Positions 2,219 through 63,554 are shown, numbered from the stretch's first letter. The stretch: DNA of 64,000 nt from an uncultured Candidatus Saccharibacteria bacterium (GCA_964642585.1 CAZXPB010000001.1:3733-67732); one strand, 5' to 3'. Numbers and translations are program-made. The notes: generated from the letters alone by a model not told the origin.

Positions 2219-5200
2219 TTATGCTAGAGGAAGAGTCTGTTTGCGAAGGTTTTCTTCAGCAATATCAGCGTTAAAGCCAGTTCCAGCAGGAATTAGCTTA
2301 CCGATGATCACATTTTCCTTCAAACCTCTTAAATAGTCAGTCTTTCCAGTTACAGCCGCCTCAATTAGAACACGAGTTGTTTCTTGGAAAGATGCCGCCG
2401 CTAGAAAGCTTTCAGTAGATAGAGATATCTTAGTAATACCCATTAGAAGTTGTTCCGCTTCAATTAGATTTCGGCCTTCACCTTCAAGGAGTTCATTCAT
2501 TTCTTGCATCTTGGACTTATCTATCATATCACCTGGTGCAAAGTCTGAATCACCACCATTTACTACGCGCATCTTAGAGAACATTTGACGAGCAATAATT
2601 TCTACGTGCTTGTCGTGAATTTGTTGTCCTTGAGAAACGTAGATATCTTGAACTTCTTTTACCAAATATTTCTGAGCCGCTTCTACACCTTGTAGTTCTA
2701 ATACTTGATTTGGATTTAAGTTTCCTTCAGTAAGTGGTTGACCAGGGTAAACTAAATCACCATCTTTAACTGTTAGAGAGAAACCGCGAGGAATTACATA
2801 TTCTACTAATTCATCACCTTCATGGATAAGTTTAATTTGGTTTTCTTCAACTTTCGCAATGCCAGCCGCTTGTGCTTTTACTAAAGTACCAGCTTCATCT
2901 GTGTAAAGTGCATCCCCTACTGCAGTATGTGTACCATCTTTAATGATTGTCTGCGCGCCAGAAGGGAGACTCAGAATTTCAGAAGTAACATTTTCTCCTT
3001 CAATACGAACGATTTGTTCACGAGTTGGAGCAATAGTAATAGAAACTTTTCCTGCAATTTCAGATACAGCGGCCATACCTTTTGGTTCGCGTGCTTCAAA
3101 TAATTCTTCTACACGAGGAAGTCCTTGAGTAATATCACTTACAGAAGCAGATCCACCAGTGTGAAAAGTACGCATAGTAAGCTGTGTTCCCGGTTCACCA
3201 ATCGCTTGTGCCGCTACAATTCCTACAGCTGCACCAAGGTCAACCATTTTGTTGAAACCAAGGTCATAACCGTAACATAGACGACAGATACCACGAACTA
3301 GTTTACATTTTAGTACTGAACGGGATTTCACTTCTGTAATTCCACTTGCAGCAATTTGAGTAGCTGTTAATTCATCGATACCTTGATTACGCTTTACGAA
3401 AACTGTGCCATCTTCTGCTTTTACGTCTACTGCTGCTACACGGCCGAATAAACGGTTTTCAAAAGATTGATTCATCATTTCACTTTCTGCGAGTGTAATT
3501 GCATCATAATCTTTAGTACCACAATCTTCGGCGTTAATAACAACATCTTGGGCAACGTCAACAAGACGACGAGTTAAGTACCCAGCGTCAGCAGTACGAA
3601 GCGCAGTGTCTGACATACCTTTTCGAGAACCATGAGTTGAGATGAAATATTCTAACACACCGATTCCTTCTTTAAAGGAACCACGAACAGGAAGTTCAAT
3701 AGTACGACCGCCAGGGTTTACCACCAAACCTTTTAGACCAGACATTTGAGTAATCTGTGAGAAGGAACCACGAGCACCGCTAGACACGAAGTAGTTTACG
3801 CTTGAGTGAGGCAGTACAGTACCAACCACATCCTTAGCAATTTTTTCAGAAGCATCTGCCCAAATTTCTACAACACGGCCATAGCGTTCATCTTCGGTAA
3901 GCAAACCTTCAAGGAATTGTTCTTGAGTTGCTTGTACTTCTTTATCAGCAGCATCAAGCAAAGTGTATTTGGTATCTGGAACTGTTAAGTCATCCATACC
4001 CCAAGATAGTCCAGATTGCTTCATGTAGTAGAACCCGGTACGCTTAATTTCATCAATTAGTTCTGCAGTGCGTTCTGAACCAAACAAACGATACGCTTCA
4101 CGAAGAAGTTGCTGTAATTTCTTTTTATCAAAAGCATCGTTGCGGTATCCCATTTCTTTTGGAACAATCTTGTTGAAGATTAAACGACCAACGGATGTTT
4201 CTACTAGCTCAGTACTTTCGTTACCAATACGCACTTTAATTTGCGCTTGAATATGTACATGTTTGTTGTTGTAAGCCATGATCGCTTCTTGACTATCGGT
4301 AAACACTTTGCCTTCACCCTTCAAGCCTTCACGAATTTTTGTAATATAGTAACAACCTACCACAGCATCTTTGTCAGGAGTCATAACTGGTTGACCAGAA
4401 GCAGGCTTCAGCAAGTTGTGAGAAGATACCATGATTTCTTTAGCTTCTTTTTGCGCCGCTTCAGTCAGTGGGACGTGAACAGCCATCTGGTCACCATCAA
4501 AGTCAGCGTTAAACGCTGCACAAACCATTGGGTGAAGTTGAATTGCTTTACCTTCAATAAGCACCGGTTGAAAGGCCTGGAAACCAAGTCTGTGCAAGGT
4601 AGGAGCGCGATTTAGAAGCACATAGTGATCTTTAGTTACTTCTTCAAGAATATCCCACACTTCTGTTCGGCTTTGTTCAATAAGTCGACTAGCTGAGCGA
4701 ACATTGTGAGCATACTCACGAGAAATTAATTTAGAAATTACAAACGGCTTGAAAAGTTCCAAAGCCATTGCTTTTGGAAGTCCACATTGATGCAGCTTCA
4801 AATTTGGTCCCACCACAATTACAGAACGACCAGAATAGTCTACACGCTTACCAAGCAAGTTTTGACGGAAACGACCTTGCTTCCCCTTAAGCATGTCTGC
4901 TAAAGAACGAAGCTTGCGCTTTTGTCCTGTGCTAGCCGTAACTTCTTTGCCATGGCGAACAGAGTTGTCGATTAAAGCATCTACCGCTTCTTGCAGCATA
5001 CGCTTTTCATTACGAGTAATAACTTCTGGTGATTTAATTTCCAAAAGTTTCTTTAGACGATTGTTTCGGTTAATAACACGGCGGTACAAATCGTTCAAAT
5101 CAGATGCCGCAAAACGACCACCATCAAGTTGCACCATCGGACGAAGGTCTGGTGGAATAACTGGTAAGTGAGTAATTAACATCCATTCTGGACGAAGTCC

Positions 5201-6100
5201 AGATTTAATTAAGGATTTAATTAGCTTCAAACGGCGTTGCATCTTTTTCGCTGCCTGGCCTTCAGTGTTAGCAAGTTGTGCTTCTACATCTTGTGCGAGT
5301 TCTTCTAGGTTTAATTCTTCAAGCAAACCTTTTACAGCTTCAGCACCAATTCCAGCAGTAAACACTGGACCGTACTTTAGAGAAAGATCACGGTAAGCAA
5401 GTTCAGAGATGATCAAATACTTCTTAATAGACTTTAATTCACTACGTGCTTGATCCCGAATGCTTTCAAGATTATTAACTTCTGCTTGCCAAAGATCTTT
5501 AATCTTTGTGATTTCAGCATCAATTTTAGCAGCTAGCACATCTGCATCACCCTTACCTTCAGATTGCATGGTGGAACGAGTCTTGCCGATCAACGCTTCA
5601 TAGCGAGTTTCAATCTCTTTTTTCTTTGACTTAAATTCACCTTCGATTTGCTCTAAGGTTTGTGCACGGGCTTCTTCATCTACTGAAGTAATAATGTAAG
5701 CTGCGAAATACACGCATCGTTCTAATTCTTGAACACCAAGATCTAAAATTAAACCAAGGCGGCTAGGTACGCTGCGCAAGAACCAGATATGAGCAACGGG
5801 AACAGCTAAAGTAATATGGCCCATGCGTTCACGACGAACACTGGATTTTGTCACTTCAACACCACACTTATCACAAACAATATTTTTGTATCGAATGCGT
5901 TTGTATTTTCCACAGTAACATTCCCAGTCCTTAATTGGACCAAAGATTTTTTCATCGAACAACCCATCGCGTTCAGGGCGCTGAGTTCTGTAGTTAATGG
6001 TTTCAGGCTTAGTAACTTCTCCGTGTGACCATTCTAAAATAGTTTCTGGTGAAGCCAGCTTGATTTTTACACCTTTGAATTCTTCAGTTTGAGTTATCAT
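2219..6100 (-). CDS. rpoC: DNA-directed RNA polymerase subunit beta' (RpoC)
   Basis: 1293 aa. N-terminal zinc-binding CxC...CxxC, NADFDGD catalytic motif present. Lies directly downstream of rpoB. Confidence 0.97.
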   Translation of the reverse strand: MITQTEEFKGVKIKLASPETILEWSHGEVTKPETINYRTQRPERDGLFDEKIFGPIKDWECYCGKYKRIRYKNIVCDKCGVEVTKSSVRRERMGHITLAVPVAHIWFLRSVPSRLGLILDLGVQELERCVYFAAYIITSVDEEARAQTLEQIEGEFKSKKKEIETRYEALIGKTRSTMQSEGKGDADVLAAKIDAEITKIKDLWQAEVNNLESIRDQARSELKSIKKYLIISELAYRDLSLKYGPVFTAGIGAEAVKGLLEELNLEELAQDVEAQLANTEGQAAKKMQRRLKLIKSLIKSGLRPEWMLITHLPVIPPDLRPMVQLDGGRFAASDLNDLYRRVINRNNRLKKLLEIKSPEVITRNEKRMLQEAVDALIDNSVRHGKEVTASTGQKRKLRSLADMLKGKQGRFRQNLLGKRVDYSGRSVIVVGPNLKLHQCGLPKAMALELFKPFVISKLISREYAHNVRSASRLIEQSRTEVWDILEEVTKDHYVLLNRAPTLHRLGFQAFQPVLIEGKAIQLHPMVCAAFNADFDGDQMAVHVPLTEAAQKEAKEIMVSSHNLLKPASGQPVMTPDKDAVVGCYYITKIREGLKGEGKVFTDSQEAIMAYNNKHVHIQAQIKVRIGNESTELVETSVGRLIFNKIVPKEMGYRNDAFDKKKLQQLLREAYRLFGSERTAELIDEIKRTGFYYMKQSGLSWGMDDLTVPDTKYTLLDAADKEVQATQEQFLEGLLTEDERYGRVVEIWADASEKIAKDVVGTVLPHSSVNYFVSSGARGSFSQITQMSGLKGLVVNPGGRTIELPVRGSFKEGIGVLEYFISTHGSRKGMSDTALRTADAGYLTRRLVDVAQDVVINAEDCGTKDYDAITLAESEMMNQSFENRLFGRVAAVDVKAEDGTVFVKRNQGIDELTATQIAASGITEVKSRSVLKCKLVRGICRLCYGYDLGFNKMVDLGAAVGIVAAQAIGEPGTQLTMRTFHTGGSASVSDITQGLPRVEELFEAREPKGMAAVSEIAGKVSITIAPTREQIVRIEGENVTSEILSLPSGAQTIIKDGTHTAVGDALYTDEAGTLVKAQAAGIAKVEENQIKLIHEGDELVEYVIPRGFSLTVKDGDLVYPGQPLTEGNLNPNQVLELQGVEAAQKYLVKEVQDIYVSQGQQIHDKHVEIIARQMFSKMRVVNGGDSDFAPGDMIDKSKMQEMNELLEGEGRNLIEAEQLLMGITKISLSTESFLAAASFQETTRVLIEAAVTGKTDYLRGLKENVIIGKLIPAGTGFNADIAEENLRKQTLPLA

Positions 6101-12437: not shown

Positions 12438-12583
12438 GAGCGTTGCGATTTAATTGTTTTTTTGTTTTGGTTTCAAATTAACGAGTAATTTTTCTCGTAT
12501 TTTGTAACATCTAAATTCATTTTAGCACATTTTCATATAAAAATCAAGTAAGATGTGTGTTTATTAATGAAAGAGTAAAAGAA

Positions 12584-19595: not shown

Positions 19596-19603
19596 AACTA
19601 CAT

Positions 19604-21676
19604 ATGAAGTTTGAACTAAAGACCAAATACCAACCATCTGGCGATCAACCTCAAGCAATTGAGGGTCTTTTTAAGTCGCTGCAAAAAGGCTACCGCCATC
19701 AAACCTTACTCGGTGTGACAGGATCTGGAAAAACATTTACGATGGCGAGTTTAATTAACAAAATTCAGAAGCCTACTTTGGTAATGTGTCATAACAAAAC
19801 TTTAGCCGCACAACTTGCTAGTGAGTTCCAAGAATTTTTCCCAGATAACGCCGTGCACTATTTTGTTTCTTACTATGATTACTACCAACCAGAAGCCTAC
19901 ATCCCCCGCTCAGATACTTTCATTGAAAAGGAAACTCAAATTAATGAAGAGATCGACAGGTTAAGAAATGCGGCAACGACTTCGTTAATGTCACGGAAAG
20001 ATGTTTTAATTGTTGCGTCTGTTTCTTGTATCTATGGTTTAGGTAATCCCGAAAACTATTTAGAGCTTTCTTTAGAGCTTAAGCGTGGAGAAAGTTTAAA
20101 ACGCGATAAACTTCTTCGCCGCCTTATTGATATGCAGTACAACCGAAATGATTTAGATCTGCGCCGAGGTACTTACCGAGTGCAAGGAGATGTAGTTGAA
20201 ATTGTTTTATCTTCTGAAGATACAATCGTGCGTCTACAATTTTTTGGTGATGAAACAGAAAGCATAGAAAGACTGCATATGATTTCTGGTGATACAATTG
20301 AAAAACTAGATTCAATTAAAATTTTTCCTGCCAAACATTTTGTGACCCCAGAAGCAAAAGTGCAAATTGCCGTAGAACGCATTCGCGAAGAACTTGCAGC
20401 GAGATTACTAGAGCTACGAGGCCAAGGGAAAATTTTAGAAGCCGCGCGACTTGAACAGCGAACTAACTTTGATTTAGAAATGCTCACTAACACTGGCTTC
20501 GTTGCTGGTATTGAAAATTATTCACGTGTCATGGAAGGCCGCGAAGCTGGTAGTCCGCCATCTACTTTAATTGATTATTTCCCAGATGACTATTTATTAT
20601 TTATAGATGAATCACACCAGACCATACCACAAGTTGGTGCGATGTTTGAAGGTGACAAATCCAGAAAAACAACTTTAATTGATTATGGATTCCGCCTTCC
20701 AAGCGCGCTAGATAATCGCCCTTTAAAATTTAATGAATTTGAACAGAAAATAAACCAAGTAGTATTTGTTTCTGCGACCCCTGGTCCATACGAGGTCAAA
20801 AAAAGTTTAGAAGAAAACTTTTTAATCACTGACAAAAAACAAACAATTATAGATACCAGCACACCTAAAAAATTTGATTTACTCCGCAGCGAAGTGGTTG
20901 TTGAACAGATAAACAGACCGACCGGACTGCTTGACCCTACTATTGAGATCAGACCTATAAAAAATCAGGTGGACCATCTCATGACTCAAATTACAGAGAG
21001 GGTAAAGAACAAAGAAAGAGTGATTGTTACCACTTTAACAAAGCGAATGGCCGAAGAGTTAAATGAATACATTAAAGAAGCAGGGATTAAAGCTCAATAT
21101 TTACATAGCGAAGTAGAGACTTTTGAACGCTTAGAAATTTTGCGTGACTTACGGCTAGGAATTTATGATGTAATTATTGGTATCAATTTACTCCGCGAAG
21201 GCCTAGACCTACCAGAAGTTTCTCTCGTAGCAATATTGGATGCAGACAAAGAAGGATTCCTAAGAAGTGAAACTGCATTTATGCAAATCATGGGAAGAGC
21301 GGCGCGTCACTTGAATGGTCATGTAATTATGTACGCCGATAGAGTTACTGGTTCAATGCAACGTGCGATTGACGAAACTACGCGCCGCCGTAAAGTCCAA
21401 GAAATGTATAACACGGCGCATGGCATTACTCCAGAAAGTATTCAAAAGAAGATTCAAGACTCTCGCCTTGCAGGTAGCCACGAAGTTTTAGCCGGCGCAG
21501 AAATAGAAGAAGTTGATGTAACAAAACTTAACCCCGAAGGGATGCGAAACTACATAGATGAACTCAATGACCAAATGGATTTAGCCTCACAAAATTTAGA
21601 ATTTGAATTAGCCGCAAAAATCCGTGATCGCTTAATCGAGATAAAACAAGTTCAGAAGTTAAAAAAGAAAAGATGA
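19604..21676 (+). CDS. uvrB: excinuclease ABC subunit B (UvrB)
   Basis: 690 aa. GVTGSGKTFT Walker A, helicase motifs, C-terminal UvrB/UvrC interaction helix. Confidence 0.95.
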   Translation: MKFELKTKYQPSGDQPQAIEGLFKSLQKGYRHQTLLGVTGSGKTFTMASLINKIQKPTLVMCHNKTLAAQLASEFQEFFPDNAVHYFVSYYDYYQPEAYIPRSDTFIEKETQINEEIDRLRNAATTSLMSRKDVLIVASVSCIYGLGNPENYLELSLELKRGESLKRDKLLRRLIDMQYNRNDLDLRRGTYRVQGDVVEIVLSSEDTIVRLQFFGDETESIERLHMISGDTIEKLDSIKIFPAKHFVTPEAKVQIAVERIREELAARLLELRGQGKILEAARLEQRTNFDLEMLTNTGFVAGIENYSRVMEGREAGSPPSTLIDYFPDDYLLFIDESHQTIPQVGAMFEGDKSRKTTLIDYGFRLPSALDNRPLKFNEFEQKINQVVFVSATPGPYEVKKSLEENFLITDKKQTIIDTSTPKKFDLLRSEVVVEQINRPTGLLDPTIEIRPIKNQVDHLMTQITERVKNKERVIVTTLTKRMAEELNEYIKEAGIKAQYLHSEVETFERLEILRDLRLGIYDVIIGINLLREGLDLPEVSLVAILDADKEGFLRSETAFMQIMGRAARHLNGHVIMYADRVTGSMQRAIDETTRRRKVQEMYNTAHGITPESIQKKIQDSRLAGSHEVLAGAEIEEVDVTKLNPEGMRNYIDELNDQMDLASQNLEFELAAKIRDRLIEIKQVQKLKKKR

Positions 21677-56619: not shown

Positions 56620-56715
56620 ATATTTTCAATTAATTCCTAGTAATAGTGTACTAATATTGCAGAAATTTTTTCAAGTGGAAAAATCTTTTTTGTTTATATA
56701 TAAGCAGGACAAATT

Positions 56716-56744
56716 AAAAACACAGTTATATAACTGTGTTTTTA
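56716..56744 (-). terminator. terminator after tRNA-Leu
   Basis: aaaaacacagttata|taactgtgttttt perfect palindrome. Confidence 0.75.
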
Positions 56745-56745
56745 A

Positions 56746-56832
56746 TGGTGCCTAGGGAGGGACTTGAACCCTCAATCCCTTGCGGGCCCAGGATTTTAAG
56801 TCCTGTGCGTATACCAATTCCGCCACCCAGGC
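56746..56832 (-). tRNA. tRNA-Leu (UAA), type II with long variable arm, CCA encoded
   Basis: GCCTGGGTGGCGGAATTGGTA...CAGGA-CTTAAAA-TCCTG...GGGTTCAAGTCCCTCCCTAGGCACCA. Confidence 0.9.
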
Positions 56833-56843
56833 AAAGCACTCGT

Positions 56844-56918
56844 TGGAGGTGCAGATGGGAATCGAACCCATGCATAGTGGTTTTGCAGACCACGGCGTTT
56901 CCACTTCGCCACTGCACC
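56844..56918 (-). tRNA. tRNA-Cys (GCA), CCA encoded
   Basis: GGTGCAG acceptor, 3-bp D-stem, anticodon loop CTGCAAA, discriminator U. Confidence 0.9.
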
Positions 56919-57720: not shown

Positions 57721-58081
57721 TTTTTAAATATCAACTCCTTATATCTATGGTAATAATCGCGAGGGGTTCAATCTTGGGTGCTATTCCCTGACTTTTACGA
57801 CCTAGATTTAATATTCTTAAGCTTTGACCTTGTTGGGGTTACTGCGATTAACAGCTTTTTTAGTCTAGTTTTGCCTATATTTGGGCTAAAAGCTCGCATA
57901 TAGGCTATAAAAAAGACTGCTCAAAGCAGTACCTTACAAATACATTATAGCAGTTTTGGGGGGTAAATACAAGCCATTTTAGGTCGTTTTAGGCTTAAAT
58001 AAGCCAAATAACGTTTTTTTAGGCTTGGGAATGGGCTGAATTGGCATACAACTCCGCTTATTTAAAAGGGGTTTGGTTTTT

Positions 58082-58112
58082 GATGGTGTTCCAAAGTACA
58101 GGATGTTAGGAT
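58082..58112 (-). repeat. 31-nt conserved element (copy A) immediately 3' of the Nudix-1 stop codon
   Basis: Minus-strand reading TCCTAACATCCTGTACTTTGGAACACCATCA followed by AAAAAC; matches copy B at 58551-58584. Confidence 0.6.
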
Positions 58113-58507
58113 TTATCATTTGCAAAGTTTTTAACCCATTCGCCACGTAATTTTAAATTATTAAGTTTTTCAACAGGAAACCACTTGGCATCAAGAAGGT
58201 CATCTCCAGGAATTAAATTCCCTGAAGTGATCTTGGCTTTAAAAATAGTTAAGGTTACTTGCTTGTTGTGGAATTCACTCAAGCATTTTAATTCCTTGCC
58301 TGTCATTGTTAGAGTATATTTTTTACCCAGACTTACGATGTAGCCAGTTTCTTCTTTTGTTTCTCTACTAGCTCCTTCTGCTAATGTTTCATTCTTTTCT
58401 AATGAGCCTATTGGTAATGACCATAACCCGTTCGCGGCAGTGTGCGATTCCTGAACTAATAATACCTGACTATTTTTGTTAACTAATGTTCCTGCAAATT
58501 GCATCAT
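58106..58507 (-). CDS. Nudix hydrolase
   Basis: Nudix box GSLEKNETLAEGASRETKEETGY; leaderless start with extended -10. Confidence 0.85.
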   Translation of the reverse strand: MMQFAGTLVNKNSQVLLVQESHTAANGLWSLPIGSLEKNETLAEGASRETKEETGYIVSLGKKYTLTMTGKELKCLSEFHNKQVTLTIFKAKITSGNLIPGDDLLDAKWFPVEKLNNLKLRGEWVKNFANDKS

Positions 58508-58549
58508 AAACCTAGTATAACAAAAAACTCCCCTTTAGGGAGAGCTTTT
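58508..58549 (-). promoter_or_regulatory. terminator hairpin (ctccc-taaa-gggag + T6) immediately followed by extended -10 promoter TGtTATACT, 6 nt from the Nudix-1 ATG
   Basis: Minus-strand reading ...aaaaagctctccctaaaggggagttttttgttatactaggtttATG. Confidence 0.6.
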
Positions 58550-58550
58550 T

Positions 58551-58584
58551 GATGGAGCTCCATAGTACAGGACGTTAGAACGTC
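58551..58584 (-). repeat. 31-nt conserved element (copy B) immediately 3' of the small Zn-ribbon protein stop codon
   Basis: Minus-strand reading (GACG)TCTAACGTCCTGTACTATGGAGCTCCATCA + AAAAAG; ~80% identical to copy A. Confidence 0.6.
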
Positions 58585-58886
58585 TATTTCACAATATCAG
58601 CAGATACAATTTTCTTAGTAATAGCTCCTACGAATACTCTGTAAGCTGGTCTACTTTCTTTCTTATAGATAATCTTACTACCTAGCACTTCTTTGCACTT
58701 AGTGCAGATTAAGTCATTACTCTTAGGCGCAGTTGGGTAAATACGGTCTAAATATAAACGTTTGATTATTCCTGGGCCATCTTTCTGATAATAGAATAAA
58801 TGATGTCCCGCTCTTTCACATTTAATATCCAACAACCTAGATGTTCCACCTCTATTCTTTCTGTATTTGTCCTGTTTAAGTTTCAT
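58584..58886 (-). CDS. small basic zinc-ribbon protein (C-x3-HH...C-x2-C), hypothetical
   Basis: 100 aa, 11-nt overlap with upstream Nudix-2 gene; K/R rich. Confidence 0.55.
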   Translation of the reverse strand: MKLKQDKYRKNRGGTSRLLDIKCERAGHHLFYYQKDGPGIIKRLYLDRIYPTAPKSNDLICTKCKEVLGSKIIYKKESRPAYRVFVGAITKKIVSADIVK

Positions 58887-59418
58887 TAACCAATTTAGTT
58901 AATAGTTCTTTGATCTCTTTAAATCCTGTTGGTCTGCTTGACCATTGATCGGGCTTTTCTTCTATGGAGTTTAAGACATCATCCAAAGACATCCATTTTA
59001 CTCCTTGCACTTCTCCGTCATTAAAGATTAAGTCATTCGTGTCGCCTGTAAAGTTGTAGAAGTATACATTAGTAAATTCTCTATTTGGTAACTTATCTCT
59101 TTTGTGAATAGGTCCCACGGTGACTTGTTCGGTAGAGATATCAAGACCTGTTTCTTCTTTCAGTTCATTTTTCAGGGCTTCTTCAAGGGTTTCTCCAGCC
59201 TTTACATGACCACCAAACCTAGTATCCCACTTATCAGGATTTAAGTCCTTGGTTTTGGAACGATGATGTACTAACAATTCAATAACTTCGTTATTAAGTC
59301 GGTAGAAGTAAATATGTACAGTTCGATGCCATAATCCTTGGGTATGAGCTTCAGAACGTAGTCTTTTCTCACCGGTTAAATTGCCCGATTCATCTAGTAT
59401 GTCAAAATATTCTTCCAT
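58876..59418 (-). CDS. Nudix hydrolase (second copy)
   Basis: Nudix box GGHVKAGETLEEALKNELKEETGL; extended -10 TGtTATACT 6 nt before ATG. Confidence 0.85.
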   Translation of the reverse strand: MEEYFDILDESGNLTGEKRLRSEAHTQGLWHRTVHIYFYRLNNEVIELLVHHRSKTKDLNPDKWDTRFGGHVKAGETLEEALKNELKEETGLDISTEQVTVGPIHKRDKLPNREFTNVYFYNFTGDTNDLIFNDGEVQGVKWMSLDDVLNSIEEKPDQWSSRPTGFKEIKELLTKLVNET

Positions 59419-59475
59419 AAAACTAGTATAACAAAAAAACTTTCTTTAAGGTTTAATCAGCTTTCCCATTAATGA

Positions 59476-61779
59476 TTAAGAAGAAGTAGTTGAGGTGCAA
59501 ATTGTCTCAAGCCGTGAATAATGATCTTCATCAGCCAACTCAATAAATTTTAGTACATTTAGCGCAATGGGTTTTGCTTCGAGCATTGATGCAGATATAC
59601 CGCGAGAGAAATCTTGACCGTGAGAATATTCGTGCAAAAACTTCACAATAAAATCTCCAGTTCCTTTCATTCTATCATCGTTACTCGTTACGAATCTACT
59701 CATTACAATACTATTAAATTCTTCAGTTGTTGCACATGACCACTTAAACCCAGCAAAATATTCTAAGATCTTTCGAGCTATATTCGCAACAAGTGGTTCG
59801 TCGAGCTGTCGTGTACCCTTAGCGAATTGATAAAGTCTACAGAATAAATACTGATACTCACTTTTATATTCTTTTAGTAAGTTAGGCAGATTTTCTATTT
59901 TGACTTCTTGGACTTCGCTTTCTTTATCGTGAGTAATCAGAAACATATTAGACTCATCTTTGTATTGTCTACTCATAAGCCAATCCCGAATAAGATTAAA
60001 GAAATCGAAGTTGTGAGTAAGTACTATTAATTGACCCACATCCTTTAAATGTCTTTTTATTAAACCCGCTGTGCGGAACAAGAATATACTGTCTTGACTG
60101 TCGACTGGATCATCTAAAACAACAAGGCAATTAGCTTTATCGCTATCATTTTCTTCCAGTTTAATTAAGAAATAAACTAAAGCTAAAACACTTTCCTCTC
60201 CCTCGCTAAGATGTTTGGCATCTTTTCCTCTTCTTTTCAGAATGTAAGATATTTCTCCGTCATCTGACTCATTTACCTCCAGATAGATAAGTGATTCCCC
60301 GAAAAATTCTTTTAATAGTGAATTAATTTTATCCACCGCATCAGATGCGTTTGTCAAAGACGCTTTTAAGACTTTAATATCTAGGAGTGTTTTGTTTCGT
60401 TCTTCTTTAGCTTTTTCTATTTCTGCCGTTAGTCTAATTACCTCACTTTTATTTTTAAAGTAGTTTTTGTTCTCTAGAATAGAAGCAATTGTATGAAGTT
60501 CAATACTTTCTGCAGCCGCTTTCACCTCTTCTGATATAGATTGCACTCTAATATTGTGCTCACTAACTATCTTTTCTATTGTTTTAAGAGATTCATTCGC
60601 TTTTTCTATATCTTCTCTGGGATATTCAATTGGTTCGTGCTTCTTCTCGTGATTGTGTAAATCAACCTGCTTATCTTTCAACTGCGTTATGATTAGGTTG
60701 ATTTGGTTTTGTATATTTTGAACGTGTTGTGATAATTCTTTCTTAGCAGCAGCACATTCTTTGCTTGGCTCGGGAAACAAAAGAGATGGTTCTAGTTCTG
60801 GAAGTTTCTCATTATTATCATTTCCAGCTAACAAATTAATAGTTTCTTGTATTTGTAATTTCGCTTTTTGTAGTTCGTCGGTAAAGAAACCACCTAACTG
60901 TACTAATAGATCATCTGGTAAAACGCCTTTGCAAAATTGGCATTCTTTTAACCCTCTTTGCTTATGTATTTTGTAACCAGCTTCTATCCAATCCTTTAAC
61001 TCACCATCTTCCTTTAATCCTTCAATGTTTTGAAAAGTAATTGAAGTGTTTAATAAACCATTGGCACTATCGAACAATTCTTCAAAATCCTCAATAGTGT
61101 TAAATTTAATATTTATCTCGGTCTTCTCATTTTTTATTACTTCTTTTTTAGAATCAACTTCGCTAGGTTCAGCAATAATAAGTGAGTTTAAGTTAGCTTC
61201 TGTGATAACCCCAGTTTCTAAACGTTTGTCTACCTTTAATTTATTATAACTTCGTCCGTAATATGTATCATCCCCTAATGGTGTATTGGTAAATTGTTTA
61301 GGAACTTCTCGGCCAGCTTGAGTTAATACATCGTCGGGATTAGGTATTTGTTTAAGTTGTTCTTCGAGTGTTTGTATTGTATTTTGATTAGTCTGGTAGT
61401 TTGATTCGTGTTGTTCAATTTGTTGTTGGGCTGTTACATTCTCTTTACCTAATATTACAATCTTTTTTGCTTGGGAATCCTCAAAGGATAAATTTTCTGT
61501 AATAAAGTCTTCGTTAAATACCTTAACGTTAAGTCCATTAGAAGTTATGTCTGTTTGCTTAATTGGAGATGCGTCTGTTTCTATGGAAAATTCAACTGAT
61601 TTCAAATCATCGATGTGAACATCCTTTCTTTCAAGAAAATTAAAGATTCTGGATATAGTAGTTTTTCCAGATCCGTTCCACCCATAAATTAGACCGTACT
61701 TCTTAAAGTCGTCCCCTATCCATTTAAACGCATCGAATGCGTCAATGTGTGTTATCTGTTTTATCTTCTTTATTAGCAT
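59476..61779 (-). CDS. RloC/PrrC-like ABC-type ATPase with coiled-coil CxxC (zinc-hook-like) insertion and C-terminal putative anticodon-nuclease domain
   Basis: Walker A GWNGSGKTT; ~350-aa coiled-coil insert containing CQFCKG; Walker B/D-loop LVVLDDPVDS; H-loop LTHN. C-terminal ARKILEYF...(≈40 aa)...H fits the R-x3-E...H anticodon-nuclease triad pattern (recalled from memory). Start taken at first ATG (MLIKKIK); GTG at 61809 is an alternative. Confidence 0.65.
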   Translation of the reverse strand: MLIKKIKQITHIDAFDAFKWIGDDFKKYGLIYGWNGSGKTTISRIFNFLERKDVHIDDLKSVEFSIETDASPIKQTDITSNGLNVKVFNEDFITENLSFEDSQAKKIVILGKENVTAQQQIEQHESNYQTNQNTIQTLEEQLKQIPNPDDVLTQAGREVPKQFTNTPLGDDTYYGRSYNKLKVDKRLETGVITEANLNSLIIAEPSEVDSKKEVIKNEKTEINIKFNTIEDFEELFDSANGLLNTSITFQNIEGLKEDGELKDWIEAGYKIHKQRGLKECQFCKGVLPDDLLVQLGGFFTDELQKAKLQIQETINLLAGNDNNEKLPELEPSLLFPEPSKECAAAKKELSQHVQNIQNQINLIITQLKDKQVDLHNHEKKHEPIEYPREDIEKANESLKTIEKIVSEHNIRVQSISEEVKAAAESIELHTIASILENKNYFKNKSEVIRLTAEIEKAKEERNKTLLDIKVLKASLTNASDAVDKINSLLKEFFGESLIYLEVNESDDGEISYILKRRGKDAKHLSEGEESVLALVYFLIKLEENDSDKANCLVVLDDPVDSQDSIFLFRTAGLIKRHLKDVGQLIVLTHNFDFFNLIRDWLMSRQYKDESNMFLITHDKESEVQEVKIENLPNLLKEYKSEYQYLFCRLYQFAKGTRQLDEPLVANIARKILEYFAGFKWSCATTEEFNSIVMSRFVTSNDDRMKGTGDFIVKFLHEYSHGQDFSRGISASMLEAKPIALNVLKFIELADEDHYSRLETICTSTTSS

Positions 61780-61818
61780 AATTGAGCTTATCTTAGCAGT
61801 TTTGTTCACTTATTAGAA

Positions 61819-61835: not shown

Positions 61836-62024
61836 CAATTAAATGTCCTAACCCCACCTAAGACGTGGGTATGGAAACTAAAACCAATGAAGAATACTGA
61901 ACCCTGCGTTCAGCTATCTTCATTGGTCATGTCTGGAAACGGGCATGGGATCTCACGATCCGGCTGGCGTGGGGCTTTGTGTTAAAGAACCCATGTCGGC
62001 TCTAACTAATTAAGATTGTCGATC
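61836..62024 (+). promoter_or_regulatory. GC-rich highly structured 5' leader (~190 nt): candidate riboswitch or cis-regulatory RNA, class unassigned
   Basis: Long irregular helix ccaatgaagaata[ctgaac-cctgc-gttcag]ctatcttcattgg; ggatc-tcac-gatcc; catggg...cccatg closing helix. GC content far above the flanking DNA. Confidence 0.4.
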
Positions 62025-62459: not shown

Positions 62460-62879
62460 ATGAACATCTATCTAGATATTGACGGTGTAATTATTACTAA
62501 AGACAAAAAGATAGCTAATGGCTTAGTAGAGTTTTTAGAATACGCTACACATAATCACACATGTTTCTGGCTCACAACTCACTGTAAAAATGATGCAAAT
62601 CGTGTCGAAGAACATATTAAACCCATACTACCAGAACATGTTTTTAAGCTAGTTCAACGGGTGAAACCAAACTCATGGACGGACTACAAAACTGACGGCA
62701 TTAATTTTGACGAAGATTTTATGTGGTTAGACGACAACCTATTTCTCAAAGAAAAGGATGTTTTACTTAAGAACAACGCTTTGTCCAAGCTAGAACTGAT
62801 CGACTTAAGAGCGAATCCAAATCAGTTGTTAGATATACTAAAAAAGCTGAAATCAAAAACTCGGATAACGTCATATTAG
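62460..62879 (+). CDS. mini HAD-superfamily phosphatase (NT5C/PNKP-phosphatase-like)
   Basis: Motif I LDIDGVI, motif IV WLDDN; 139 aa. Confidence 0.6.
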   Translation: MNIYLDIDGVIITKDKKIANGLVEFLEYATHNHTCFWLTTHCKNDANRVEEHIKPILPEHVFKLVQRVKPNSWTDYKTDGINFDEDFMWLDDNLFLKEKDVLLKNNALSKLELIDLRANPNQLLDILKKLKSKTRITSY

Positions 62880-63206: not shown

Positions 63207-63554
63207 ATGCCTAAAATTAAGCACAAATTTATAAGAGTACACTGGGTAAGTTTAAAAACTTTTAATCTTACACCTACCGAAGTACTGCTATTAAACCTTG
63301 TACAAGGTTTATCTAATAACAAACATAAAGCTTGCTACGCCTCTAAGAAAGCATTGGGAATAGAATTAAATGTGGCTACAAGTACGATTTATAACACTAT
63401 TGATAGTTTGCAAAGGAAAGGACTTTTAAGATCTAAAAGAATTTCTATGAAAGAGGCTCATTTGCAGACCACAAGTAAATGGCAAAGTCATTTAAATCAG
63501 GTTCGATCAGATAATGAACCATTACCAGATGAATGGTCAGACATTGATAACTAA
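63207..63554 (+). CDS. winged-HTH DNA-binding protein resembling phage/plasmid replication-initiator or DnaD-like N-terminal domains
   Basis: …TPTEVLLLNLVQGLSNNKHKACYASKKALGIELNVATSTIYNTIDSLQRKGLLRSKR… typical wHTH pattern. Confidence 0.5.
   Translation: MPKIKHKFIRVHWVSLKTFNLTPTEVLLLNLVQGLSNNKHKACYASKKALGIELNVATSTIYNTIDSLQRKGLLRSKRISMKEAHLQTTSKWQSHLNQVRSDNEPLPDEWSDIDN

Follow-up and report, generated by a model that had tools for sequence, protein, structure and literature searches.

A predicted RloC-type anticodon nuclease gene next to a Nudix and predicted beta-tent gene array in a Candidatus Saccharibacteria genome

The locus and its features

A cluster of four minus-strand genes was analysed in a stretch of 64,000 nucleotides (nt), called the window hereafter, from an uncultured Candidatus Saccharibacteria bacterium (GCA_964642585.1 CAZXPB010000001.1:3733-67732), where the largest gene encodes an ABC ATPase of the RloC type, i.e. 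a predicted anticodon nuclease (ACNase), and the other three encode two Nudix hydrolases (Nudix-2 and Nudix-1) and a Cys/His protein of 100 amino acids (aa). An earlier note on this DNA had proposed the four as a candidate defence module. Calling of open reading frames (ORFs) placed all four exactly where that note had them, and all four are real. The stop codon of the ATPase gene and the start of Nudix-2 are separated by 57 nt on the same strand. On the upstream side of the ATPase gene we find a LOOT RNA, the gene of a small membrane protein, that of a 139-aa HAD-like protein (mini-HAD) and that of an HTH_36 protein. Coordinates are collected in Table 1, in which residues are numbered from the GTG start. 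It may be noted that in the alignment of 38 ATPase homologues (identity down to 19%), from which residue conservation was taken, the homologues align from M11, corresponding to ATG 61779, and therefore the real product is probably the 767-aa form that begins there. For gene neighbourhoods, a total of 162 homologue loci was used, comprising 89 genomic or metagenomic loci and 73 loci from viral contigs. Of the 89, species-representative genomes supplied 80 and the other 9 were obtained by looking up the closest relatives; flanks reached up to 7 kb.

Table 1. Positions of the genes, motifs and other features in the window.
Feature	Position	Strand	Remark
RloC-type ABC-ATPase/anticodon-nuclease gene	59476-61809	-	777 aa from GTG 61809
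Walker A/P-loop GWNGSGKTT, residues 43-51	61657-61683	-	G43, N45, G48, K49, T50, T51 invariant in 38 homologues
Helical insert of coiled-coil type within the ABC head, residues 122-503	60301-61446	-	almost wholly helical in the AlphaFold2 model
CxxC zinc-hook motif C290-Q-F-C293	60931-60942	-	both Cys invariant
ABC signature L534-S-E-G-E538	60196-60210	-	S535, G537, E538 invariant; aligned with Rad50 signature
Walker B and D-loop LVVLDDPVDSQD, residues 562-573	60091-60126	-	D566, D567, P568, S571 invariant; aligned with Rad50 Walker B
H-switch VLTHN, residues 596-600	60010-60024	-	H599 invariant; T598, N600 at least 90%
All-alpha C-terminal domain, residues 643-777, predicted ACNase (HEPN-type)	59479-59883	-	AlphaFold2 secondary structure
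R679-K-I-L-E683, Arg-x3-Glu part of the predicted ACNase triad	59761-59775	-	N676, R679 invariant; L682, E683 at least 90%
S729-H730, predicted catalytic His after Ser	59620-59625	-	both invariant; 46 residues past E683
Promoter-like block before Nudix-2	59416-59451	-	TGTTATACT at 59425-59433
Nudix-2	58876-59418	-	180 aa; neighbour outside the RloC unit
Gene of the 100-aa Cys/His protein (predicted beta-tent zinc fold)	58584-58886	-	overlaps Nudix-2 stop by 11 nt; neighbour outside the RloC unit
Terminator-like hairpin and T-run after the 100-aa gene	58528-58542	-	
Promoter-like block before Nudix-1	58505-58540	-	second copy of 36-nt direct repeat, 81% identical
Nudix-1	58106-58507	-	133 aa; neighbour outside the RloC unit
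LOOT RNA (RF03000)	61845-61961	+	oriented divergently; 36 nt to the GTG of the RloC gene
139-aa HAD-like protein (mini-HAD)	62460-62879	+	DxDGV motif by eye
115-aa HTH_36 protein	63207-63554	+	

Family identity and predicted fold of the large protein

Profile search gave a match of the ATPase to Pfam AAA_13 at 3e-114 (residues 32-741 against profile positions 12-699 of 713), and the PADLOC profile PDC-S06 was matched over its full length (PDLC04894, 7e-135, residues 11-770 against 1-737 of 740). Several homologues carry the JGI annotation 'wobble nucleotide-excising tRNase', which is the label of COG4694/RloC. The family is large: a cutoff of E <= 1e-3 admits 3,698 cluster representatives and one of E <= 1e-30 leaves 1,085, and almost all are collinear and about 740-790 aa long. 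It also has phage-borne members, as seen from a match to phrog_2801 at 1e-52 and from the 73 viral-contig loci. The best named relatives belong to Candidatus Pacebacteria/Paceibacteria and Campbellbacteria.

As defined in the founding paper (PMC2610378), an RloC is 658-897 aa long, i.e. about twice PrrC, has PrrC-like ABC motifs together with a coiled-coil insert carrying a central CX2C zinc hook, and ends in a C-proximal Arg-X3-Glu-X36-52-His where Ser often stands before the His. The window protein, with 767 or 777 aa, falls inside this range of length. Its ABC motifs GWNGSGKTT, LSEGE, LVVLDDPVDSQD and THN are invariant or nearly so, sequence and model both give the insert with its hook (invariant C290/C293 and a predicted helical stretch), and in R679-x3-E683-x46-S729-H730 the spacing lies inside x36-52. 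By its sequence, then, the protein is a genuine and ordinary member of the RloC family in every one of these respects, and the assignment as RloC-type is supported as more precise than the RloC/PrrC-like of the earlier note. The ATPase motifs quoted in that note are all present and invariant or nearly so in the 38 homologues, and the layout it had described (ABC head, coiled-coil insert, CxxC hook and R-x3-E...SH) holds, with profiles, conservation and structure model in agreement. Also invariant or nearly so is H763 in the C-terminal domain.

The AlphaFold2 model (mean predicted local distance difference test score, pLDDT, of 83) shows an ABC head split by a helical insert, and a C-domain that is all-alpha. 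The predicted insert is about 380 residues long, and the CxxC is located in a turn that has helices 269-285 and 301-308 on either side. Among solved structures in the PDB, Foldseek placed Rad50 (7zr1, 3e-7) and SMC heads with coiled coils at the top of the matches to the model. The ATPase C-lobe aligns with Rad50, and when the alignment profile was used the CxxC region (profile positions 274-336) matched the Rad50 zinc-hook structures 6zff (8e-4) and 1l8d (5e-3). The nuclease domain of RloC/PrrC has been placed in the HEPN superfamily (PMC3710099); sequence and profile searches of the PDB gave no solved structure of PrrC or RloC.

In the RloC of Geobacillus kaustophilus (GkaRloC), the residues K44, C291, D572, R692, E696 and H737 have been validated by mutation (PMC2610378, PMC3458546), and the tRNase activity, which excises the wobble nucleotide, is lost on mutation of the triad (PMC2610378). 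The ACNase is switched on by the DNA-dependent ATPase and deregulated by mutation of the zinc hook (PMC3458546). An AAA_13 protein that has the layout of RloC may still serve in another role, such as DNA sensing or tethering for restriction-modification (R-M), with a C-domain that is non-catalytic. For the window protein such a role would agree with the function having been read from motifs only, with PDC-S06 being an unvalidated PADLOC candidate, and with the position of S729-H730 at the start of a flexible loop (730-739) that has low confidence in the model. Against it, the R, E and H that are essential in GkaRloC are conserved, with Ser before His, in 38 homologues down to 19% identity, which argues for purifying selection on the nuclease site, and we consider the non-catalytic alternative improbable.

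Genomic company of the homologues and of the neighbouring genes

Nudix genes were searched in 9,956 ORFs (at least 60 aa) from the 162 loci by using phmmer with both Nudix proteins of the window, strict and loose Nudix-box patterns (the loose one being needed because the box of Nudix-2 has N instead of R) and a small ad hoc Nudix hidden Markov model (HMM). As positive control, both window Nudix genes were strongly recovered by the same searches. Within about 6-7 kb of the homologue, no convincing Nudix gene was present in any of the loci (0 of 89 genomic or metagenomic and 0 of 73 viral), nor did any of the nine close relatives (47-64% identity) have one nearby. The sole marginal match to the HMM (locus L060, E = 0.0016) lies 4.8 kb from the ATPase and is devoid of a Nudix box. 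The module of RloC, paired Nudix enzymes and a zinc protein put forward in the earlier note thus fails on conservation of neighbourhood, the lack of which the note had itself named as a refutation. Also, no conserved downstream partner was seen for the close homologues: in several of them a gene begins 4 nt past the stop, and the products of these genes are unrelated to each other and to the neighbours in the window.

R-M and recombination genes are found beside the relatives instead, which for the closest ones is the classical setting of a 'restriction-linked ORF'. Of the five closest (57-64% identity), four occupy the 3' end of a type I R-M operon; P0004, P0007, P0011 and P0017 (58-64% identity) are directly downstream of hsdM/hsdS/hsdR on the same strand. 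P0022 comes after a HaeIII-type R-M system with Vsr, P0034 and its relative in L002 adjoin two DNA methylases, and P0014 and P0035 are present among resolvases or an integrase. On tallying the Pfam families of immediate neighbours in the 89 loci, Methylase_S, ResIII, HSDR_N, N6_Mtase and Phage_integrase were found to lead. The linkage to R-M in this clade of the candidate phyla radiation (CPR) is therefore tighter than the 'rarely linked' picture drawn for RloC in the founding paper (PMC2610378). It was also observed that in four loci of the closest homologues (L081, L083, L084 and L086) type I R-M operons open with an HTH_17 gene and close with the RloC gene; in L086 the gene of a protein with a FokI cleavage domain is placed between hsdR and rloC.

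Next to the ATPase gene in the window, Nudix-2 matches PF00293 at 2.2e-17 and Nudix-1 matches it at 4.9e-17, which bears out the Nudix identity given to both genes in the earlier note; like the AAA_13 match of the ATPase, these values lie far outside chance. Nudix-1 has a canonical box (G34...R48-E49-T-x-E52-E53-x-G55) and its MutT-like NCBIfam matches are all below cut-off. For Nudix-2 the nearest NCBIfam models, also below cut-off, are those of IPP isomerase and YfcD-like proteins. The box of Nudix-2 (59143-59211, minus strand, residues 70-92) reads G70-x5-E76-x7-N84-E85-L-x-E88-E89-x-G91, so that Asn stands where the REUxEE core canonically has Arg. Taken together with the nearest models, this Asn means that the substrate may be atypical. 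Orthologues of Nudix-2 with 38-57% identity occur in six metagenomic loci (including L090-L094), and neither RloC nor the small protein is alongside.

The 100-aa protein was earlier called a zinc-ribbon. It is a real Cys/His protein, but its predicted fold is better described as a beta-tent (Yippee/MsrB-like) zinc domain, and no Pfam family is matched at threshold. With this protein 190 matches were obtained, 50-93% identical, across distant CPR lineages (Veblenbacteria, Yanofskybacteria, Microgenomates, Woesebacteria); we found the family only in CPR lineages, and it has an invariant motif of its own, YQKDGPG...KR.Y.D. The copy in the window has lost the second Cys of the first Cys pair. Such identity across CPR lineages is housekeeping-like and not defence-like. 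Three other CPR loci with a gene of this family (L096, L097 and L098) were inspected, and none has an RloC-like gene nearby. In L096 (6001-6303) the gene overlaps an upstream HAD hydrolase gene and is flanked by ribosomal protein S2, EF-Ts and TruB; in L098 (5001-5297) it overlaps an upstream inorganic pyrophosphatase gene; and in L097 (5001-5309) and L098, genes of HIT, NUDIX, His_Phos_1, MazG-like and CYTH proteins come after it or are near. It may be noted that, from genome to genome, the phosphohydrolase gene overlapped on the upstream side is a different one (Nudix, HAD, inorganic pyrophosphatase). These differing partners suggest that the 100-aa protein is a conserved small partner or regulator of nucleotide-hydrolysing enzymes.

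The note had assigned an own promoter and an own terminator to each transcription unit. This is borne out only in part. As regards promoters, the two Nudix genes have a promoter-like 36-nt block in common, but generic sigma-70 sites are not above chance (10 found against 14.9 expected). The block consists of a T-run and TGTTATACT, followed by ATG 7 nt on. The window has four occurrences of TGTTATACT, two of them elsewhere (930 and 43689), where 0.87 would be expected. By its sequence the block indicates near-leaderless transcripts, which would start from a promoter type common to both Nudix genes. As regards terminators, there is one terminator-like hairpin after the 100-aa gene and a second about 175 nt past Nudix-1 (57916-57930), but none between the ATPase and Nudix-2.

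These results bear on the proposal of a single defence system made up of all four genes (RloC, Nudix-2, the small zinc protein and Nudix-1), in which the Nudix enzymes would, for example, hydrolyse a nucleotide that serves as effector or signal, or process RNA ends made by the tRNase. The common strand, the short gap with no predicted terminator between ATPase and Nudix-2, and the matches of both Nudix proteins to the PADLOC candidate PDC-S07 (7e-13 and 9e-8) would all be expected of such a system. The PDC-S07 profile has no curated threshold, though, and the matches are weaker than those to the generic Pfam NUDIX (~1e-17), and therefore they reflect only the Nudix fold and add nothing specific. 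Also, the homologue loci are free of convincing Nudix genes, the nine close relatives included, and the promoter-like block belongs to the Nudix genes themselves. The small protein (in three loci) and Nudix-2 (in six) occur elsewhere without RloC, so that these genes do not travel with it as had been supposed, and no link between RloC or PDC-S06 and Nudix enzymes was found in the literature consulted. A single system of this kind is very improbable on our assessment.

The same three neighbours may instead be an independent defence or counter-defence cassette of the PDC-S07 kind, which shares a defence island with RloC and is mechanistically separate from it. The PDC-S07 matches could be counted here as well, as could the clustering tendency of defence genes and the presence of Nudix and MazG-like genes in islands, e.g. 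in L098, where the beta-tent gene is near a resolvase and several Nudix/MazG/HIT genes. However, the identity of the 100-aa family across distant CPR lineages is far above that of typical defence genes, its copy in L096 is among core genes, and its partners (HAD, pyrophosphatase, HIT, His_Phos_1) are generic house-cleaning enzymes, which makes such a cassette quite unlikely. Nudix-2, the beta-tent protein and Nudix-1 are a typical CPR array of nucleotide 'house-cleaning' enzymes unrelated to RloC.

On the other side of the RloC gene is LOOT, an Rfam small RNA of unknown function. The copy here scores 71 bits against a gathering score of 46.4 and is the only one in the window. Four other loci (L027, L084, L086 and, with two copies, L085) have LOOT at a distance of 0.1-4 kb from an RloC homologue. 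In L084 (11973-12096, minus strand) and L086 (10390-10513, minus strand) it leads an operon of an ORF, DUF488 and an integrase. The two copies of L085, at 4500-4621 (minus) and 12457-12578 (plus), are inverted and bound a block of about 8 kb in which the RloC homologue is found together with a resolvase and an HTH_36 homologue, while in L027 the RNA (5170-5301, plus) is 133 nt downstream of a distant RloC homologue and a resolvase is the other neighbour. Within the 2.19 Mb of DNA analysed, the LOOT-like pattern is confined to the LOOT-bearing CPR loci, and LOOT was absent from five CPR loci without RloC (52 kb). The only match in IMG/VR is on a viral contig (L099; 9856-9948, plus), where LOOT adjoins a serine recombinase and a methylase and RloC is absent, which argues for a link to mobile elements over one specific to RloC. 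That LOOT works together with RloC-type tRNases on mobile elements of CPR bacteria, e.g. as a decoy, an antitoxin-like or a regulatory RNA, and is more than a co-passenger, is a very doubtful proposition; probably it marks or leads a CPR mobile-element module. We also observed that LOOT always has an ORF following on its own strand.

The HTH_36 protein resembles the N-terminal winged helix-turn-helix domain of phage and plasmid replication initiators (phrog_2880, phrog_428), and its homologue in L085 (10641-11054, minus) is beside resolvase genes and 2.3 kb from the RloC homologue. This context is a hint of mobile-element DNA on the upstream side of RloC. Since LOOT and HTH_36 recur in recombinase-bearing modules beside close homologues, the RloC gene was probably delivered by a mobile element, and the pattern suggests RloC to be cargo of a LOOT-marked, recombinase-borne CPR element.

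The mini-HAD, which the earlier note had related to the phosphatase chemistry of tRNA repair, matches nothing in Pfam, NCBIfam or PADLOC. A HAD-like homologue with 38% identity was observed in a Paceibacteria genome (L002, 12236-12646, plus), at a distance of 3 kb on the downstream side of the RloC homologue; there a DUF559/Vsr-like endonuclease gene lies on one side of it and a TrpR-like gene on the other, with an integrase nearby. As this is 1 of the 89 loci, with the other 88 having none, the mini-HAD was rejected as a partner of RloC.

About 1.2 kb downstream of the cluster there are two minus-strand tRNA genes, tRNA-Leu(UAA) at 56746-56832 and tRNA-Cys(GCA) at 56844-56918. A perfect palindrome of 17+17 nt (ATTAAAAACACAGTTAT/ATAACTGTGTTTTTAAT, 56713-56746) is present at the 3' end of tRNA-Leu and is probably a terminator. 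No duplicated tRNA 3' end that would hint at an integration site was found at this pair, and the search for island boundaries gave no convincing direct repeats or att-like sites flanking the cluster.

Interpretation and comparison with known systems

To explain the locus, we favour a stand-alone ('orphan') RloC-type anticodon nuclease of a Patescibacteria (CPR) genome, its gene simply lying next to nucleotide hydrolase genes that form a housekeeping array, and give this reading a probability of roughly 0.8. Some observations weigh against it. Between the ATPase and Nudix-2 no terminator was detected, and with only the 57-nt same-strand gap between them, co-transcription by read-through is possible. 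The closest homologues in the sample are 57-64% identical to the window protein, genomes of the same genus being outside it. In the 64 kb of the window, beyond which about 5 kb of the source contig extend, no R-M system, integrase, resolvase or recombinase was detected when hsdM/S/R, methylase and restriction proteins from the relatives' loci were used as R-M queries; the search returned only a weak helicase similarity at 19598-21673. The mobile-element origin and any R-M partnership are therefore inferences. Also, with a GC content of 0.338 against 0.377 +/- 0.03, the ATPase gene is not clearly marked as foreign.

If the analogy with GkaRloC holds, the Rad50-like ABC head with its coiled-coil/zinc-hook insert would hold the HEPN-type RNase at the C-terminus inactive. 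The nuclease would then be turned on by ATP hydrolysis in combination with DNA ends or with the loss of a partner restriction system, and it would cut tRNA anticodon loops by excising the wobble nucleotide, so shutting down translation in the infected cell (abortive infection). An abortive-infection tRNase is most likely the function by homology with GkaRloC (PMC2610378, PMC3458546, PMC3874168); cleavage of tRNA, what sets it off and which tRNA is hit are all inferred from the same analogy. The gene itself was probably brought in by a mobile element and now adjoins the Nudix-2/beta-tent/Nudix-1 array.

On the favoured reading, the RloC-Nudix architecture is a chance juxtaposition and should not enter catalogues of candidate defence systems, and same-strand adjacency in compact CPR genomes is to be taken as weak evidence for a functional unit. 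RloC-type anticodon nucleases are present, and apparently intact, in small-genome Patescibacteria. Their carriage in this CPR clade, mostly as the 3' gene of type I R-M operons or on elements with recombinases, fits a PrrC-style 'second line behind restriction' better than the 'rarely linked' view that early genomes had given.

Among known systems, the small protein may be compared with the beta-tent domains of Yippee/Mis18, MsrB/SelR, the RIG-I/LGP2 C-terminal domain and the cereblon CULT domain, from all of which it differs in being about 100 aa long and, in our searches, CPR-only, with its own invariant motif and one Cys lost. In PADLOC, PDC-S06 (AAA_13 ATPase) and PDC-S07 (Nudix) are separate single-gene computational candidates and not a two-gene system. 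The large protein shares with Rad50/SbcC/SMC a split ABC head, a long helical insert and a CxxC hook. Unlike it, those proteins have no C-terminal nuclease domain and, in DNA repair, partner with Mre11/SbcD; its insert, of ~380 residues, is also much shorter, and the model shows more breaks in it than a canonical coiled coil of antiparallel helices has. With PrrC of E. coli it has in common an ABC-ATPase N-domain followed by a C-terminal Arg-Glu-His ACNase domain, the same Pfam AAA_13, and relatives linked to type I R-M systems. However, PrrC (341-416 aa) lacks the insert with coiled coil and zinc hook, and its gene always lies within a type Ic R-M (hsdMSR) locus, whereas the window protein is about twice as large, has a 380-residue insert and is without R-M genes in 64 kb.

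GkaRloC (Davidov & Kaufmann 2008; Klaiman et al. 2012) is like the window protein in size class, ABC motifs, CX2C hook insert and R-x3-E-x36-52-(S)H, and K49/C290,C293/D566-567/R679/E683/H730 here are collinear with K44/C291/D572/R692/E696/H737 there, as judged by the published positions. The host is a member of CPR/Patescibacteria, a group not found among the hosts in the accessible text of the 2008 RloC survey (PMC2610378). As in most RloCs, no R-M genes directly adjoin the gene in the window. Unlike RloCs in general, which are 'rarely' linked to R-M, its nearest relatives are mostly found inside type I R-M operons.

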